NCBI GenBank assembly: GCA_004347695.1
Contig: SLTK01000009.1
Coordinates: forward strand, 194,328-258,327
DNA: 64,000 nucleotides
Source: Chloroflexota bacterium
Lineage (GTDB): Bacteria > Chloroflexota > Anaerolineae > Anaerolineales > Anaerolineaceae
Direction of reading: 5' to 3'
The notes below the pieces were generated by a model, which had not been told where the DNA came from, did no database searches, and saw only the letters and a program-made list of their open reading frames with translations. Positions 29,248 to 35,387 of this stretch are shown piece after piece. How positions within the stretch are numbered: position 1 is the stretch's first letter; each line of letters starts with the position of its first letter. The translations under genes were made by a program, and so were the position numbers.

Positions 29248-29730
29248 TTACGGCTCGATGGGATAACCGGCGTCCCGCCAGGCAGCAAATCCGCCTGAGA
29301 TCGCCTGGACATTAGCGAAACCGTTTTCCTGGAGGATGAGCGCCGCACCGGCGCTCGATTCTTCGGCCGGTCAGGTACAGTAGGTGATGATCCATTGATT
29401 TTTATCCAACTCGGCCATGCGGCTGCGTACCGTGCTGTAGGGGATGTTGAGTGCCCCGGAAACATGACCCGCTGAATAATATTCCGGGTCGCGCACATCC
29501 ACAAAAACCGCCGAACCGTCATCATAGGCTGCTTTGGCGTCCTGCAGTGAAATTCGCGCCACTTCCGGGAATGGAAATTCGGTAGTTGGGACAGGGTTCG
29601 TTTGCGCTGCCGGGATTTCTGGGCCAAGCACCTTGATGGTTTGCCAGATGACGACGCCCAGAATGATTACGGAGCCTAAAATCATCAGAATAATCGGAGT
29701 GGTTGGATTTTTTGGTTGTTTGCGCGCCAT
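29248..29730 (-). CDS. membrane-anchored rhodanese-like selenoprotein (UGA at 29371-29373 read as Sec120), 160 aa
   Basis: The track ORF stops at YCT-TGA. The frame continues PAEESSAGAALILQENGFANVQAISGGFAAWRDAGYPIEP-TAA, completing the rhodanese fold (VDVR, GHVSGALNIP, GGF.AW...G.P). SECIS-like hairpin follows. Confidence 0.85.
29338..29356 (-). promoter_or_regulatory. bacterial SECIS-like hairpin
   Basis: GAGCGCC-GGUGC-GGCGCUC: 7-bp stem, loop beginning GG, loop 21 nt downstream of the UGA. Confidence 0.7.
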
Positions 29731-29967: not shown

Positions 29968-30696
29968 TTACGGCACCCGGCCGATGGCGTAGAAGGTCGG
30001 CACGAAGAGGATGCGCTCACCGTGCTGCCAGGCGGCGGCGTCGATGCGGCGCAGCTCTGCAAGGCGTTCGGCGGGCAGGCTGCCGGCCAAATCGGCTTCC
30101 AGTGCCGCCCATTCCAGATCCCAACCGTCTTCCAACTGCATGGCGCTCCATTCCCCGCCCATGACGCCGCTGGTGACCTGCTGCAGCCCGGCGGCGGTGA
30201 ACAGGGCAGCCAACTTACGACCCCTATGTGGGTCTGCGCCCTGGCGCTCCAGCGCTGATCCCTGAAGCTGACCAATTTCTGCAAGCTCGGCCGGGAAGTC
30301 AATGCGCGCGCCGTAATCGGGTTCTGCCAGCGCCAGGATCATCCCGCCGGGGCGAGTGACGCGCCGCATTTCGGCCAGCACGCGGGCGGCGTTCACCCAC
30401 AGAAGAAAATAATGCGTCAGGCAGGCATCGAAGCTGGCGTCGGCATATGGCAGGGTGTCTGCGTCGGCGCGCACCAATCGGGCGCGCGGGACGGCATGCT
30501 GTGCGATCTGCAAATGCTGCCAATCCCAATCCAGGCCGTGCAGTGTTCCGGCGGGGCAATCTGTCAGCACCGCGCCGGTACCGCAGCCGGGTTCAAGGAC
30601 GCGAGCGGTCCTGGTGAGACCGGCTTTTTCGTAGAGATAGCGGCGAATCTGAGCGGTCCAGCCGGCCTGCTGGGTGTAGCGGGCGTGCCAGTCCAC
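29968..30696 (-). CDS. class I SAM-dependent methyltransferase
   Basis: VLEPGCGTG, LHGLD, ADADTLPYADASFD, LAEMRRVTRPGG. Start uncertain: GTG 30696 chosen just after the upstream stop; the ORF extends to 30750. Confidence 0.88.
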   Translation of the reverse strand: MDWHARYTQQAGWTAQIRRYLYEKAGLTRTARVLEPGCGTGAVLTDCPAGTLHGLDWDWQHLQIAQHAVPRARLVRADADTLPYADASFDACLTHYFLLWVNAARVLAEMRRVTRPGGMILALAEPDYGARIDFPAELAEIGQLQGSALERQGADPHRGRKLAALFTAAGLQQVTSGVMGGEWSAMQLEDGWDLEWAALEADLAGSLPAERLAELRRIDAAAWQHGERILFVPTFYAIGRVP

Positions 30697-30704
30697 TGGC
30701 TGGC

Positions 30705-31877
30705 CTAAACCGGGGCGACTTCGCGCGCCCGCAGCCAGATTTGCTCCCACGGGTCATTTAGTAGATTGCCAAGGATGGCGTTGGAACCCTGGCGCGGCAG
30801 TACATCGCCGTCGGGCTCGACGTACAACCAGGAACGGCCGGCGCCGGCAATGTGTTCGCCAACTTCATTCAGTTCCAGCGCTACCGGATTCAACTGCGAA
30901 TAGGGCACCGGTAGATCCCAGACCAACTCGATATGATGATGAGCGGCTAGCTCGCGGGCGGATTCAAGTTCAAGTTTGAGCGCGCCAGAAGCCTCGCTCA
31001 GGCTCAGCGAAGCGACATTTAGTTCAGCAAGGCGTTCCAGAATTGCGGGAATGTTTGATGCGTTCTGCTCTGTGACAGTAAGATGGACGGTTACGAACAG
31101 GTCCTCGGCCAGAACATCACGCAACGCCTCCCAGGATTGCTCCTCGGCGGGATTCAGCACCAACATCAGGTGATCCAGACCAGCCTGCAACACGGAGTGC
31201 AGGTATCCGGTTTCGGAGAAACGCAGGCCGTCACTGAGCACTCCGGCGACCATGCCAAGCTGTTCGGCGTGGGTGATCAATTCCACCAGGTCGGGGCGCA
31301 GGGTGGGCTCGCCGCCGGTAAAAATCACATGTGGAATGCCGGCGTTCCAGGCTTTGTCCAGGATGGTGATCCATTCTTCAGTGGTCAGGTTGCGGCGGAC
31401 GCGGTCAACCGGGGCGCTGGCAGCGTGCTCCCGGTCAGCGGTCTCGTAAGTCAGCGCGCAGTCCAGACGCAACGGCGCCATCAACTTTTGCGAATGCGGG
31501 GCTGTGCGCTCGAAATCGAGGTAGGTGGCCGGGTCAAGGTCGGGTGTTTCCACCAGCGTGGCTACCCGCTGCGAGAAATCCTGGAAGTCCTGCAATGCAT
31601 CCGAGGCAGGTACGCGGTAGCGTTTGGCAATCGCGGTCGCGACCTCGCCGGGGGGTGTCTGATGCAGTAAATGATAGGCATACTCGGTGGCGGTCTGGTT
31701 GAGGTGCAGCACGGTGGAGGCATTGACGATCAAAATGCCTTCGCCGCCTTCCTCGATGCGCAGGTGCAACCGAAAAGGCACCGGCACGTCCGGCGGCGAC
31801 TGGTAGTGGTGCACGCCAGGAGGAAGAGGCGTCTGTTGAGTGAAAAAGCGGTCCAAATAATTGCGAATTTTATCCAT
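30705..31877 (-). CDS. radical-SAM-fold protein with N-terminal PqqD/RRE-like domain, lacking CxxxCxxC and SPASM cysteines
   Basis: Paralogue of the adjacent gene (GIPHVIFTGGEPTLRPDL, AGLDH, EPDGDVLP..LGN.L.DPWEQIW). LTYETADREHAA replaces LTYRCNNNCAHC. ATG 31877 with GGAGG RBS. Confidence 0.85.
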   Translation of the reverse strand: MDKIRNYLDRFFTQQTPLPPGVHHYQSPPDVPVPFRLHLRIEEGGEGILIVNASTVLHLNQTATEYAYHLLHQTPPGEVATAIAKRYRVPASDALQDFQDFSQRVATLVETPDLDPATYLDFERTAPHSQKLMAPLRLDCALTYETADREHAASAPVDRVRRNLTTEEWITILDKAWNAGIPHVIFTGGEPTLRPDLVELITHAEQLGMVAGVLSDGLRFSETGYLHSVLQAGLDHLMLVLNPAEEQSWEALRDVLAEDLFVTVHLTVTEQNASNIPAILERLAELNVASLSLSEASGALKLELESARELAAHHHIELVWDLPVPYSQLNPVALELNEVGEHIAGAGRSWLYVEPDGDVLPRQGSNAILGNLLNDPWEQIWLRAREVAPV

Positions 31878-31915
31878 TTTTTCTTTCCTCCGTCCCGGGC
31901 GATGAAAATTGGGGG

Positions 31916-33283
31916 CTAAACCGGCGTGACTACGGTCTGTTCGGTTCGCGCCAGCGGGCAACCTCCGCCGCATTCAGCTAATAAGGCGCAGGAATTACAC
32001 TCTACGGGCAGGTTGCGGCGTTCGCGCAGGCTGAGCGCCAGCTCATGGTTCCAGATGCTTTCCCAGGGGTCAGTCAGGATGTTGCCGAGCGCGGTATAGT
32101 AGGACTGGCAGGGCAGCACCGAGCCGTCCGGTTCGATACACATGTTGTAAAGGGCGGCCGAACAACCCTTGACGCCCAGTTCCATTTGCACCGGGTCAAA
32201 ATTGCAGTACTGGGTGGGCGTGTACCAGATCAAGCGCTGAGCGGCGGAATCCGTCTTCTGGCGGGCGATATTCAGCAGCGGCGGCAAGGCGGACTCAGGC
32301 AAGCCGCTACCCACTTTCGCTCCGCGACCGGAATAGATCAGTGCATTCAACCCGACGGTCGGCACCCCTAATTCGGCCAGGAAGTCCAGCGTCTGAGATA
32401 GGAAGGGCGCGTTCGATCGCAGCAGCGTGGTATTGGTCATGACAAACAGGCGGGTTGCCAGCGCATTGCGCACACCGGCAACTGTTTCCTGCCAGGCGCC
32501 GTGCGGCGCGACCATGGCGTCATGGATGGCGGGGTCATGCGACTCGAGGGTGATTTGAACATGATCCAGGCCGGCATCCACCAGTTGCTGGACGAATGCC
32601 GGATCTTTCAGTTTGCGCCCGTTGGTATTGATGCCGGTGATCTGGCCCAGCCCTTCGGCGTGGGCGATCAGCTCGGGCAGGTCCGGCCGCAGGGTAGGCT
32701 CTCCGCCGGTGAACACGATGTGCGGGATGCCGATTTTCCACAGCAGGTCGAGGGTGCGCTTCCAGGCAACGGTATCCATCTCGGGGAAGTTGCGCGGCCG
32801 GGCATTGTAGCAGTGCGCGCAGTTGTTGTTGCAGCGGTAGGTCAGCGCCAGGTCCATGCGGTAGGGCGCGGAAGGGTGCTGCGAGAACGGCGCCAGCACT
32901 TCCAGCTCCAGGTCATGCACCGGGCAGGCGCCGTCAGGCGCGGTAAGTTCATCCAATTGCGGGATGAACTGCGCATAGTCAAGTAACGCTTCCTCGCCGG
33001 GTACTTTGAATTGACGGGTGATGGCGCGCACCGCGGTCGGCTGGGGGACTTTTTCCAGCGCCAGGTAGGCCATCAGGGCGGCGGTGGGGTTGAGGTGAAA
33101 GGCTCGGTTGGCGTTGACCAGCAGCAGCCCATGTCCATCCGCTTCCAGGCGCAAATGGATGCGGGCTTTGCCGTCGCGGTCCTCCCGGCTGTAGTGGTAA
33201 ACCCCGGATTTGGGCAGACCGGGTACTTGGGCACTTCCGCTCATAAGAAAGCGCGGGAACAGATTCGAAATGCGTTTTACCAT
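31916..33283 (-). CDS. radical SAM/SPASM enzyme with N-terminal PqqD/RRE-like domain
   Basis: CNNNCAHC, FTGGEP, NTNG; SPASM KGC...CIEPDGSVLPC...ECNSCALLAECGGGCP. N-terminal LLLVNANRAFHLNPTAA...AITRQFKVP...D is RRE-like. ATG 33283 with AAGGGA RBS; the longer track start is the alternative frame of the CA repeat. Confidence 0.92.
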   Translation of the reverse strand: MVKRISNLFPRFLMSGSAQVPGLPKSGVYHYSREDRDGKARIHLRLEADGHGLLLVNANRAFHLNPTAALMAYLALEKVPQPTAVRAITRQFKVPGEEALLDYAQFIPQLDELTAPDGACPVHDLELEVLAPFSQHPSAPYRMDLALTYRCNNNCAHCYNARPRNFPEMDTVAWKRTLDLLWKIGIPHIVFTGGEPTLRPDLPELIAHAEGLGQITGINTNGRKLKDPAFVQQLVDAGLDHVQITLESHDPAIHDAMVAPHGAWQETVAGVRNALATRLFVMTNTTLLRSNAPFLSQTLDFLAELGVPTVGLNALIYSGRGAKVGSGLPESALPPLLNIARQKTDSAAQRLIWYTPTQYCNFDPVQMELGVKGCSAALYNMCIEPDGSVLPCQSYYTALGNILTDPWESIWNHELALSLRERRNLPVECNSCALLAECGGGCPLARTEQTVVTPV

Positions 33284-33297
33284 TAACAGATTCCCTT

Positions 33298-34998
33298 TTA
33301 TCGTCCGCCGCCAGCGCAGGCGCAGGCACATCCGGCACAGGCGCAAGCACAGGCGCACGAGCGTCCGCCGCCACCTGATCCGCCGGAGCGGGTGTAGGTA
33401 GTCTTGGGTACCGGATTGGTCTTATTCGTGATGGTGTCGGTGAAGCTTGTCAAGTTGCCGACCACGCTGGCCGAGAATTCCTGAGCGCCATTGACCATCG
33501 AAGCGGCAAAATCTGAGCCCGGTAGTTTGGGCAGGTTGATCGAGCCGCCCTGACTGGTTGACGGCATGGAAGGAAGCGAGGCTGCGGCCATGCCGCCGCC
33601 ACCACCACTCGGGCGCATGGCAGGATCAAAGCGCCACCACCAGGTGGGCACGAAGACCGGCTGCGGCCCGAAGGATTGCTGGGTGCGCCCGGACCATTCC
33701 TTGTCGAGCATGGTCCATTCCATTACCTGCTCGTAGGTTTCCGATTTGACCTCAGGAGTATCCGCGGCTGTGACCTGCGCCCATGCTTTTTCCATGATTG
33801 CCGTGTAGTACGCGATCGTTTCTTTGCGGCTGAAACCTTTCATCTTTTCGGAGATCGATTTGACCAGGCCAACCGTCACGGATTGCAGTTCGCGGCGCCG
33901 GGCAGCTTTGTCTTCGGTTTCGAAGGCTTTGCAGAAATCCACCTCATACGGCTGCAGGTTTTCAGGCAGTGGACTGACGACTTCCAGTTTGAGCGGTTCG
34001 CGCGTGACAACAGTAGCTGCGCCTTTTTTGAGCACGCTAAACAGAATCATGCTCATGACTTTATCGAGCGGCTGCTCCATCAGAATGGCTGCTTCGACCG
34101 CGGTCAAACCGCGCTTGATGCCATGGCCTTCGACCGCAATTTTTGGCGGCATGTATTGTAATTTGCGCTTTTCGGCAGCTTTCGCGCCGGCAATGCCGCC
34201 CCACACAATAAAAGCGGTTATCAGGCCGAAGCAAAGGAAGGGGAAGAGGGTATCTATGGAGATGGAACGGGAGTTTGGCGTTTCGGTCGCTACGACCACT
34301 TCGGCCGGCACCAGGGCCATGGGGAAGCTAGCGCCGAATTCATAAATGGTCGATGCATCCGCGTTGTCAGCAGTCCAGGTATACACCACCCGGTTCTGAT
34401 CATCGTAACTGGATGCCGGCTCGTCCGCACCCGGCCAATTGCCGGACGGAGTATGGTAACGCGGCTGCTCCGGTTCAACACCGGGCGGCAGAATGATACT
34501 GAAGGTGTAATTGGTCTTACCGCGTACCAGGCTTGAATCGAACCAACTGGGGGTGAACACCAGACTGGCATACGGTTCGGCTTCTTCCTGTGAACCAGGA
34601 CCCAGTGCATTGCGCACCACGCCCACCTGAACGCGCAGGGTGCCGCTTTGCCCTGGTCGGATCGCATTGGATCCCAGATGGAATTCTACGCCCGGGCTGA
34701 CATATTCGGAGTCAGCAATGCGGTCAACCGGCGCGCCGTCGATGGTCGCGCTAATGCTGTATAACTCATAATCGTAATTGGGCATGCCGACATCGACAAT
34801 GTCGATCGGGTCAGCGTTGGGCTCATTGGCAAACGTGATGGCATAATCCAGACTGAGGGTTCCATCCGAATTAACAAAAACGCTGACATTTTGAACCGGA
34901 ACTTCGAAGGAGTAATTCTGCGCCAGAGCTGTCGACGGGCTAACCAGCAAAATCAGCGCGATAAGCAGCAGGAGACCACCCCGAATCCTGTGCATCAA
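33298..34998 (-). CDS. single-pass membrane protein (DUF2207-like) with C-terminal Cys-Ala repeat tail
   Basis: Signal peptide, beta-rich ectodomain, one TM helix (LFPFLCFGLITAFIVWGGIAGA), cytoplasmic domain ending RSCACACACAGCACACAGGGR. Confidence 0.88.
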   Translation of the reverse strand: MMHRIRGGLLLLIALILLVSPSTALAQNYSFEVPVQNVSVFVNSDGTLSLDYAITFANEPNADPIDIVDVGMPNYDYELYSISATIDGAPVDRIADSEYVSPGVEFHLGSNAIRPGQSGTLRVQVGVVRNALGPGSQEEAEPYASLVFTPSWFDSSLVRGKTNYTFSIILPPGVEPEQPRYHTPSGNWPGADEPASSYDDQNRVVYTWTADNADASTIYEFGASFPMALVPAEVVVATETPNSRSISIDTLFPFLCFGLITAFIVWGGIAGAKAAEKRKLQYMPPKIAVEGHGIKRGLTAVEAAILMEQPLDKVMSMILFSVLKKGAATVVTREPLKLEVVSPLPENLQPYEVDFCKAFETEDKAARRRELQSVTVGLVKSISEKMKGFSRKETIAYYTAIMEKAWAQVTAADTPEVKSETYEQVMEWTMLDKEWSGRTQQSFGPQPVFVPTWWWRFDPAMRPSGGGGGMAAASLPSMPSTSQGGSINLPKLPGSDFAASMVNGAQEFSASVVGNLTSFTDTITNKTNPVPKTTYTRSGGSGGGGRSCACACACAGCACACAGGGR

Positions 34999-35024
34999 GC
35001 ACCTCCCTGATATAAGTTATAAAG

Positions 35025-35387
35025 TTACCACTTGGGTTCTTCGGTTAACTGGTAGGTCGAATGGCACCAGGGGCAGGTGACGACCGGCGCCCCGGCGACC
35101 ATTTTGATATCTTCGGGTTTGAGTGTGCCGCCGCACGCCACACACTTGAGCGTATCCATATTTACGTTGCCGGGAAGGTCGATATTGAGGGTTACGTTGG
35201 TGTCGGCTGCTTTGGCGGAAGACCGGCTTGCCAGGTAGATCATCACCAGCCCGACGCCGCCGATAATGATGCCAAACACAATCCAGCCAACAGAACCCTG
35301 ATCACCGGTGGATCCCCAGACGAGCAGAACACCAAATAAGACCAGGATTGACCCCACGATGTAGGCGATAATTTTTCCAGCGCGCAT
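35025..35387 (-). CDS. two-TM membrane protein with C-terminal Zn ribbon
   Basis: Two hydrophobic helices, then CVAC...CPWC; AGGAG RBS. Confidence 0.82.
   Translation of the reverse strand: MRAGKIIAYIVGSILVLFGVLLVWGSTGDQGSVGWIVFGIIIGGVGLVMIYLASRSSAKAADTNVTLNIDLPGNVNMDTLKCVACGGTLKPEDIKMVAGAPVVTCPWCHSTYQLTEEPKW

Follow-up and report, generated by a model that had tools for sequence, protein, structure and literature searches.

Why does one locus hold two radical S-adenosylmethionine (SAM) proteins side by side when one of them has lost every cysteine that could bind an iron-sulfur cluster? This question is raised by a Chloroflexota genome of the family Anaerolineaceae (assembly GCA_004347695.1, contig SLTK01000009.1), of which a stretch of 64,000 nt was analyzed; this whole stretch is called the window here, and positions count from its first letter. 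The gene under study (30705..31877) lies on the minus strand, as does every other feature given below by window coordinates, and encodes a 390-aa radical SAM paralogue that is cysteine-less at all ligand sites (the dead copy). It stands next to its parent paralogue, a 455-aa radical SAM/SPASM enzyme (31916..33283; the live enzyme) with a recognition element (RRE) of the kind known from ribosomally synthesized and post-translationally modified peptides, the motif CNNNCAHC and 12 conserved cysteines. The results support the view that the dead copy is a maintained pseudoenzyme whose ligand loss is complete and ancient. We propose, with a probability of roughly 0.58, that it assists the live maturase as a non-catalytic partner and docks the substrate through its RRE.

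Loss of all cluster ligands in a paralogue of the live enzyme

The dead copy aligns with the neighboring enzyme along its full length, as the initial annotation of this DNA had noted: residues 1-390 match residues 2-427 of the live enzyme with 36% identity (BLASTP, E 2e-74). In the cluster loop, LTYRCNNNCAHCYN of the live enzyme is changed to LTYETADREHAASA in the dead paralogue, and the three cluster cysteines become T, E, and A. The resulting loop, TADREHAA, is without the CxxxCxxC motif required of catalytic radical SAM members; the earlier reading of this loop as ETADREHA was off by one residue, which is immaterial to the cysteine loss that it described. The former cluster-binding loop follows beta1 (residues 145-155; 31413..31445) and carries variable, unconserved residues in place of CxxxCxxC. 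The SPASM cysteines are also gone. The change of LPC to LPR is as described before, while GC is replaced by IA and not by the AG given at first, the register being approximate at this site. The protein ends ahead of the segment C429-x2-C432-x5-C438-x3-C442 (CxxCx5CxxxC) of the live enzyme, so the reported absence of this tail motif holds. No auxiliary-cluster cysteine is left, and the family PF13186 gives no match to the dead copy compared with 38.6 bits for the live neighbor. The sole cysteine of the dead copy, C140, occupies a non-ligand site at which the live enzyme has Leu.

The same pattern is found throughout the relatives. Conservation was scored over 34 dead-copy rows and 33 live-enzyme rows, with one candidate row (L027), which is a live enzyme, left out of the dead rows. 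Each of the 12 conserved cysteines is present in 33/33 paired live enzymes and in 0/34 syntenic partners. At three of these positions the dead copies have fixed replacements (D115, S327, and Y352), and 32/34 of them have acquired C140. A search of 5.8 billion proteins yielded at least 120 orthologue clusters with 54-98% identity from Bellilinea, Longilinea, Anaerolinea, and other Anaerolineae, whose public record names are 'radical SAM protein', 'hypothetical protein', and 'PqqD family peptide modification chaperone'. These clusters show no cysteine at cluster positions 2 and 3 or at any SPASM position and no C-terminal motif, and a cysteine at the first cluster position alone occurs in 4/121 orthologues. 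The initial annotation had asked whether orthologues retain CxxxCxxC; none does, down to about 50% identity.

A maintained pseudoenzyme

We compared the ratios of non-synonymous to synonymous substitution rates (dN/dS) against close relatives, using the Nei-Gojobori method (NG86). The dead copy has a dN/dS of 0.07-0.11, which matches the 0.06-0.08 of the live enzyme, and the values for the tail protein encoded upstream and for ligA are 0.055 and 0.078. The dead copy is therefore a pseudoenzyme in the sense that the loss of its catalytic residues is conserved across orthologues under purifying selection, and the earlier suggestion of a maintained protein rather than a decaying copy is borne out. 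A recently inactivated duplicate on its way to loss would explain the in-frame stops found in a few orthologues (TGA in G031, TAA in G151, and a stop in G339), but this reading is refuted by the absence of the ligands across orthologues, the fixed replacement residues, and the low dN/dS. The conserved length also argues against it, as does the phylogeny: when 108 family members are placed in a tree, all 34 cysteine-less partners fall into a single long-stemmed clade, which has a support of 100 in the Shimodaira-Hasegawa-like approximate likelihood ratio test (SH-aLRT), and some 37 clusters that lack the cysteines, taken at 50% identity, group with the cysteine-less family. The probability left to a decaying duplicate is practically negligible.

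Fold and complementary constraint

The barrel of the dead copy is intact and its RRE appears to be so, as had been claimed from the sequence. The Pfam family Radical_SAM (PF04055) matches with 35.7 bits against a cut-off of 29.5. An AlphaFold2 model built with 46 orthologues has a mean predicted local distance difference test score (pLDDT) of 81 and a predicted template modeling score of 0.81, and it shows an N-terminal domain of four strands and three helices, six beta-alpha units, and a SPASM-type hairpin. The best Foldseek matches in the PDB are PqqE (6c8v), SkfB (6efn), and SuiB (5v1q), with E values from 1e-13 to 1e-10. The PqqD-like RRE domain (residues 20-110; 31548..31820) is modeled with strands at residues 21-59 and helices at residues 61-110 (pLDDT 76-93). 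Its match to PqqD (PF05402; 22.5 bits, E 1.4e-4) falls slightly below the cut-off of 23.4, and many orthologues have a precomputed PF05402 match. The most conserved stretch of the dead family, RLHLR...NASTVLHLNQTA.EYA, is located inside this domain. The predicted barrel (residues 133-300; 30978..31481) has the fold of the partial (beta/alpha)6 TIM barrel of radical SAM enzymes, with two deletions of about 14 residues relative to the live enzyme, after beta4 and beta6. What is left of the SPASM domain (residues 301-390; 30708..30977) keeps the EPDGDVLP hairpin, while its cysteines are replaced by the fixed residues S327 and Y352, and the CxxCx5CxxxC segment is truncated.

The two families are constrained in a complementary manner, with the dead RRE held more tightly than the live RRE and the dead barrel and C-terminal half held more loosely. 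The mean pairwise identity of the RRE is 0.48 in the dead copies versus 0.44 in the live enzymes, and the relation is reversed in barrel beta1-3 (0.61 versus 0.74), barrel beta4-6 (0.41 versus 0.64), and the C-terminal domain (0.52 versus 0.70). Positions conserved in at least 94% of the sequences number 16 in the dead RRE versus 6 in the live RRE, 41 versus 65 in the whole barrel, and 21 versus 37 in the C-terminal domain. Sites in the barrel and C-terminal domain at which each family is fixed, but for a different residue, are diagnostic; systems with a single enzyme agree with the live family at 16 of these sites and with the dead family at 2, which marks the dead copy as derived. Only one diagnostic site bears on whether the dead RRE is ancestral. 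The RREs of the nearest single enzymes are 0.38-0.45 identical to the dead RRE versus 0.33-0.39 to the paired live RRE, which hints at subfunctionalization.

The conserved positions of the barrel could also point to a repurposed barrel with a non-radical function, either the sensing of SAM or S-adenosylhomocysteine, by which the live enzyme or the methyltransferase would be regulated, or a metal or thiol site at Cys140 and His265. The GGE motif (G188 G189 E190; 31308..31316) is invariant in the live and dead families, strand-end residues specific to the dead family are fixed (C140 in 32/34, H265, S292, D321, and Y352), and the 41 barrel positions at or above the 94% threshold would agree with such a function. 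However, SAM in canonical radical SAM enzymes is anchored to the unique iron of the cluster, which the dead copy lacks. The live-invariant sites in beta3-beta5, whose positions were assigned to SAM contacts by homology, are all replaced (NTN by L/S/D, S248 of the ES motif by P, and T283-N284 by VH), and the two loops are deleted. In addition, a different dead paralogue that evolved independently (type C, below) has lost GGE too, which argues that SAM binding is no general need of such partners. The SAM-binding regulator named in the initial annotation is thus weakly supported by the sequence, with GGE kept and the NTN, ES serine, and TN sites changed, and we regard a repurposed barrel as unlikely.

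A near-invariant cysteine-rich tail as the presumed substrate

The presumed substrate is the tail protein (33298..34998), which is 566 aa long, has a signal peptide, and spans the membrane once. Its C-terminal end is the tail CACACACAGCACACAGGGR (33301..33357), which occurs once in the genome; the protein ends in ...GGSGGGGRSCACACACAGCACACAGGGR, with seven closely spaced cysteines in the tail. The tail is essentially invariant across relatives, while the host protein is only 30-63% identical. The AlphaFold model of this protein consists of the signal peptide, a beta-sandwich ectodomain, a transmembrane helix at about residues 253-279, a cytoplasmic domain, and a disordered C-terminus. Two conserved helices at residues 493-526 (LPGSDFAA...FT..IT..TNP.P) are predicted to precede a disordered Gly-rich linker and the tail (residues 533-565), and these pre-tail helices could act as a leader-like element. 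The ectodomain (residues about 30-225) is a generic beta-sandwich that comes closest, among PDB folds, to domain I of M1 aminopeptidases and to an oligosaccharyltransferase subunit, and the cytoplasmic part has a strongly conserved EG.GIKRGLTAVEAA.L.E.PLDKV motif. The tail protein matches no Pfam or NCBIfam family, and literature searches on Cys-Ala repeat tails returned nothing relevant.

A separate, non-catalytic RRE protein can present a substrate to a radical SAM enzyme, as PqqD does; it differs from the dead copy in being a stand-alone RRE of about 90 aa and not a full-length dead enzyme. The closest precedent for the present arrangement is given by the thuricin CD sactisynthases TrnC and TrnD, two radical SAM paralogues that bind each other via their RREs (Jia et al. 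2025, PMC12093266). Contact with the leader is made chiefly by TrnD, whose radical SAM cluster can be mutated with little loss of activity (PMC12093266). Two co-encoded paralogous RRE-bearing radical SAM proteins serve one substrate there, as the putative complex of the two paralogues in the window would do. The two pairs differ in several respects. TrnD has a reduced SPASM (twitch) domain, yet it keeps CxxxCxxC and an auxiliary cluster and cleaves SAM, whereas the dead copy is without any ligand and has deletions in its active-site loops. The substrate of TrnC and TrnD is a secreted bacteriocin precursor, whereas that of the present pair would be the tail of a 566-aa membrane protein, and no close sequence relationship between the two pairs was detected. 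The heterodimer-partner and substrate-presenting roles that had been offered for the dead copy would fit both this precedent and the tighter constraint on its RRE.

In the docking model that we favor, the conserved pre-tail helices of the tail protein would serve as a leader-like element, which would be docked by the RRE of the dead paralogue; this RRE would probably also pair with the RRE of the live enzyme. The disordered (Cys-Ala)n tail would then be placed in the active site of the live enzyme and modified by radical chemistry, and methylation by the downstream methyltransferase may come next. We infer the complex with the live enzyme, the substrate docking, the tail as the substrate, and the chemistry; the putative complex is supported by synteny and by the complementary constraint. 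The seven closely spaced cysteines also allow a different mechanism, a split radical SAM enzyme, in which the cysteine-rich tail would enter the empty barrel and give the cluster ligands in trans, so that SAM cleavage would be restored. The retained GGE and barrel would agree with this mechanism, but it is without precedent, the other barrel positions conserved in live enzymes are lost, the loops are deleted, and one genome (G257, below) has an orphan dead copy and no tail protein. We consider a split enzyme highly improbable.

Distribution of the system and the place of the dead copy in it

The five-gene cluster that contains both paralogues is present in 29/41 related genomes and syntenic across the order. 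Ornatilinea apprima, a cultivable member of the Anaerolineae, also has the locus (L035). A profile scan for the tail protein over one genome per GTDB species recovered 80 loci. Type A loci, which have the live enzyme and the cysteine-less partner, number 38, with two more in which the live enzyme lies outside the locus, and all are from Chloroflexota. Type B loci have the live enzyme only, and the 25 of them are found in bacteria (Chloroflexota, Zixibacteria, Acidobacteriota, Fermentibacterota, Hydrogenedentota, and Pseudomonadota) and in archaea (Methanomassiliicoccales, Bathyarchaeia, Heimdallarchaeota, and Hodarchaeota). Type C loci, of which there are seven, pair the live enzyme with a different dead paralogue and come from Chloroflexota, Planctomycetota, Myxococcota, Armatimonadota, and a deltaproteobacterium. 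The remaining 8/80 loci, several of which lie at contig ends, have no radical SAM gene. The core of tail protein, Zn-ribbon protein, and radical SAM/SPASM enzyme is also found in the archaeal loci L080, L081, L088-L091, L094, L098-L100, and L103-L105. The archaeal tails differ slightly from the tail that is nearly invariant across bacteria, as in CACACACACACAGGGR and C[VI]CAC..CACACACVSCACACAGGGVG, and keep the CACACAGGG end. The core system thus extends from Chloroflexota to Asgard archaea, mostly with a single enzyme, and the cysteine-less partner, which is confined to the Chloroflexota, is an accessory to a core of far greater age and spread.

The gene order within the loci bears on a further alternative, in which the dead copy would be a holdase or negative regulator that binds the leader-like segment or the cysteine-rich tail alone, and either shields its thiols ahead of modification or competes with the live enzyme and so limits modification, without forming a productive complex. 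In G030/L106 and L055 the gene next to that of the tail protein is the dead copy, directly after it, and the live enzyme is encoded elsewhere; together with the conserved RRE and the dispensability of the partner in type B systems, this would suit such a role. The gene order in these genomes also counts in favor of the docking model. In most type A loci, by contrast, the dead copy is the next radical SAM-type gene after the live one, and 38/40 type A loci hold both in one locus. The TrnC/TrnD precedent favors cooperation as well, and the G257 orphan has no tail protein to hold. A holdase or regulator is therefore improbable in our judgment.

Several observations weigh against the dead copy as a docking partner of the live enzyme. 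Single-enzyme systems of type B, spread over at least 10 phyla, have the very same tail, so the partner is not needed for the chemistry itself. A pure scaffold role leaves the invariant GGE and the gained, conserved Cys140 unaccounted for, and the in-frame stops in G031, G151, and G339 fit poorly as well. Mirror-tree correlations name no partner: they are 0.67 for the tail protein and the pseudoenzyme, 0.65 for the live enzyme and the pseudoenzyme, and 0.73 for the tail protein and the live enzyme, and they range from 0.36 to 0.73 throughout the five cluster proteins. Finally, the 97%-complete metagenome-assembled genome (MAG) G257 has an orphan dead copy, with neither the live enzyme nor the tail protein detected. 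This orphan (L116:2601-3752, minus strand, in contig G257:C35) is an open frame of 384 aa with 56% identity and lies beside genes resembling those of leucine biosynthesis, and the full cluster is present in its congener G205.

The MAG G339 has two divergent copies of the system (C77:6800-13430 and C36:10427-13276), whose tail proteins are 53% and 46% identical to that of the window. One copy has a live enzyme and a dead paralogue with an in-frame TGA, and the other has the tail protein and a dead paralogue only. This double system may reflect a mixed bin or a true duplication.

Origin of the dead copy and repeated loss of the cluster site

The origin of the dead copy was examined with a constrained tree in which the cysteine-less clade groups with the paired live enzymes and the single enzymes of Chloroflexota. 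This tree is not rejected by the approximately unbiased test (p-AU 0.83), and it is 28.7 log-likelihood units better than the quick free-search tree, consistent with the dead copy having arisen by duplication of the system's own maturase inside the Chloroflexota. A transitional form is encoded at L063:4423-5661 (plus strand). This protein is cysteine-less and has a partner-type C-terminus, and it keeps the alpha4 segment, which is deleted in the main dead family, and a linker cysteine. It scores 326 bits against the live query and 342 bits against the dead query.

In the 108-member tree, the dead paralogues of type C branch separately, as a clade with a long stem of its own. They have neither CxxxCxxC nor GGE, keep CxxCx5CxxxC, match no NCBIfam family, and accompany the tail variant CACACAGCACACACAGGGR. 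The gene order in type C loci is Zn-ribbon protein, live radical SAM enzyme, dead radical SAM paralogue, tail protein, and methyltransferase. Type C paralogues are located at L020:5264-6664 (minus strand) and L025:5314-6675 (minus strand), and also in L082, L083, L084, L086, L087, L092, and L102. On the tree of representatives at 50% identity, the cluster site was lost in at least 3-5 events. Since the motif is also missing from several other lineages within the live-enzyme clade, the results suggest that loss of the cluster site is recurrent in this radical SAM family.

Seven family members (P0157, P0187, P0188, P0209, P0212, P0216, and P0225) are full-length proteins in or near the live-enzyme clade that are without CxxxCxxC and show varied SPASM loss.

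Relation to known systems

Peptide-modification cassettes in which a dead radical SAM protein accompanies a live one are a recognized kind of system, of which the present family is an independent and undescribed case. Such dead paralogues are recognized only as the database labels TIGR04150 and TIGR04347. TIGR04150, the pseudo-radical SAM protein of the GG-Bacteroidales system, resembles the dead copy in being a radical SAM homologue next to a genuine radical SAM enzyme in a peptide-modification cassette, and we take this family to be without the cysteine motif. The dead copy scores only 13.2 bits against its cut-off of 250, and differs from it in its independent origin, phylum, and substrate type. 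In its cassette, TIGR04150 is reported to pair with TIGR04148/TIGR04149 (PMC4573289). TIGR04347 ('pseudo-SAM/SPASM protein') is likewise a named radical SAM/SPASM-like family held to be non-canonical or dead; against its cut-off of 525, the dead copy reaches 44.2 bits and the live neighbor 100.8 bits, which reflects generic radical SAM similarity only. No NCBIfam model reaches its cut-off for the dead copy, the best being PqqE with 74.7 bits versus 381. PqqE, SuiB, and SkfB, which are peptide maturases of the radical SAM/SPASM or twitch kind that depend on an RRE, are the best matches in sequence and fold. They resemble the dead copy in its predicted N-terminal RRE, in the partial TIM barrel, and in the hairpin of SPASM type, but they are catalytic and have 2-3 clusters. 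Full-text literature searches found no experimental study of a dead radical SAM paralogue and one mention of TIGR04150.

If true, the docking-partner role would extend the single biochemical precedent of TrnC/TrnD and carry that arrangement to completion. More tentatively, an obligate two-subunit maturase may have evolved at least twice, in type A of the Chloroflexota and in type C, within one undescribed, pan-prokaryotic system whose range includes Asgard archaea, Bathyarchaeia, and Methanomassiliicoccales and which would modify the (Cys-Ala)n-GGGR tail with which a membrane protein ends in the cytoplasm. This maturase would represent the end-point of the TrnC/TrnD arrangement, in which one paralogue docks the leader without redox chemistry and the RRE of the other drifts; we consider this wider picture less likely than not. 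Types A, B, and C together with the transitional form L063 make up a natural experiment on how recognition may come to be separated from catalysis in an RRE-bearing maturase. Arguably a bigger question than the dead copy is the system around it, whose tail is near-invariant and which extends to Asgard archaea.

Gene starts and neighboring genes

The minus strand of the window from 29968 to 35387 holds five genes in the order Zn-ribbon protein, tail protein, live enzyme, dead copy, and methyltransferase, separated by 26, 14, 38, and 8 nt, the 38-nt gap being that between the two radical SAM genes. The first gene of this conserved cluster encodes a small membrane protein of 120 aa with a C-terminal Zn-ribbon (35025..35387). 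The reading frame of the dead copy is intact and has a strong ribosome-binding site, as reported before: a Shine-Dalgarno sequence, GGAGGA (31886..31891), is read from the sequence 8 nt ahead of the ATG at 31877. Orthologues begin at this Met and are 383-396 aa long, which excludes the ATG further upstream, at 31973, as the start of the dead copy.

The last gene of the operon encodes a class I SAM methyltransferase (29968..30696; Pfam Methyltransf_11, 62.6 bits), for which the listed open reading frame (ORF) extends to 30750. Because V19 aligns with the first residue of its orthologues, and an in-frame stop lies upstream of this site in G015, this gene probably starts at GTG 30696, 8 nt past the TAG of the dead paralogue. 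This 8-nt spacing suggests translational coupling between the two genes. A promoter and terminator scan gave matches that are no commoner than in shuffled sequence. Directly downstream of the operon, a membrane-anchored rhodanese-like ORF (29248-29730) ends at a TGA after ...YCT, and a rhodanese-like gene also adjoins the cluster in G015 (L022) and in L030.

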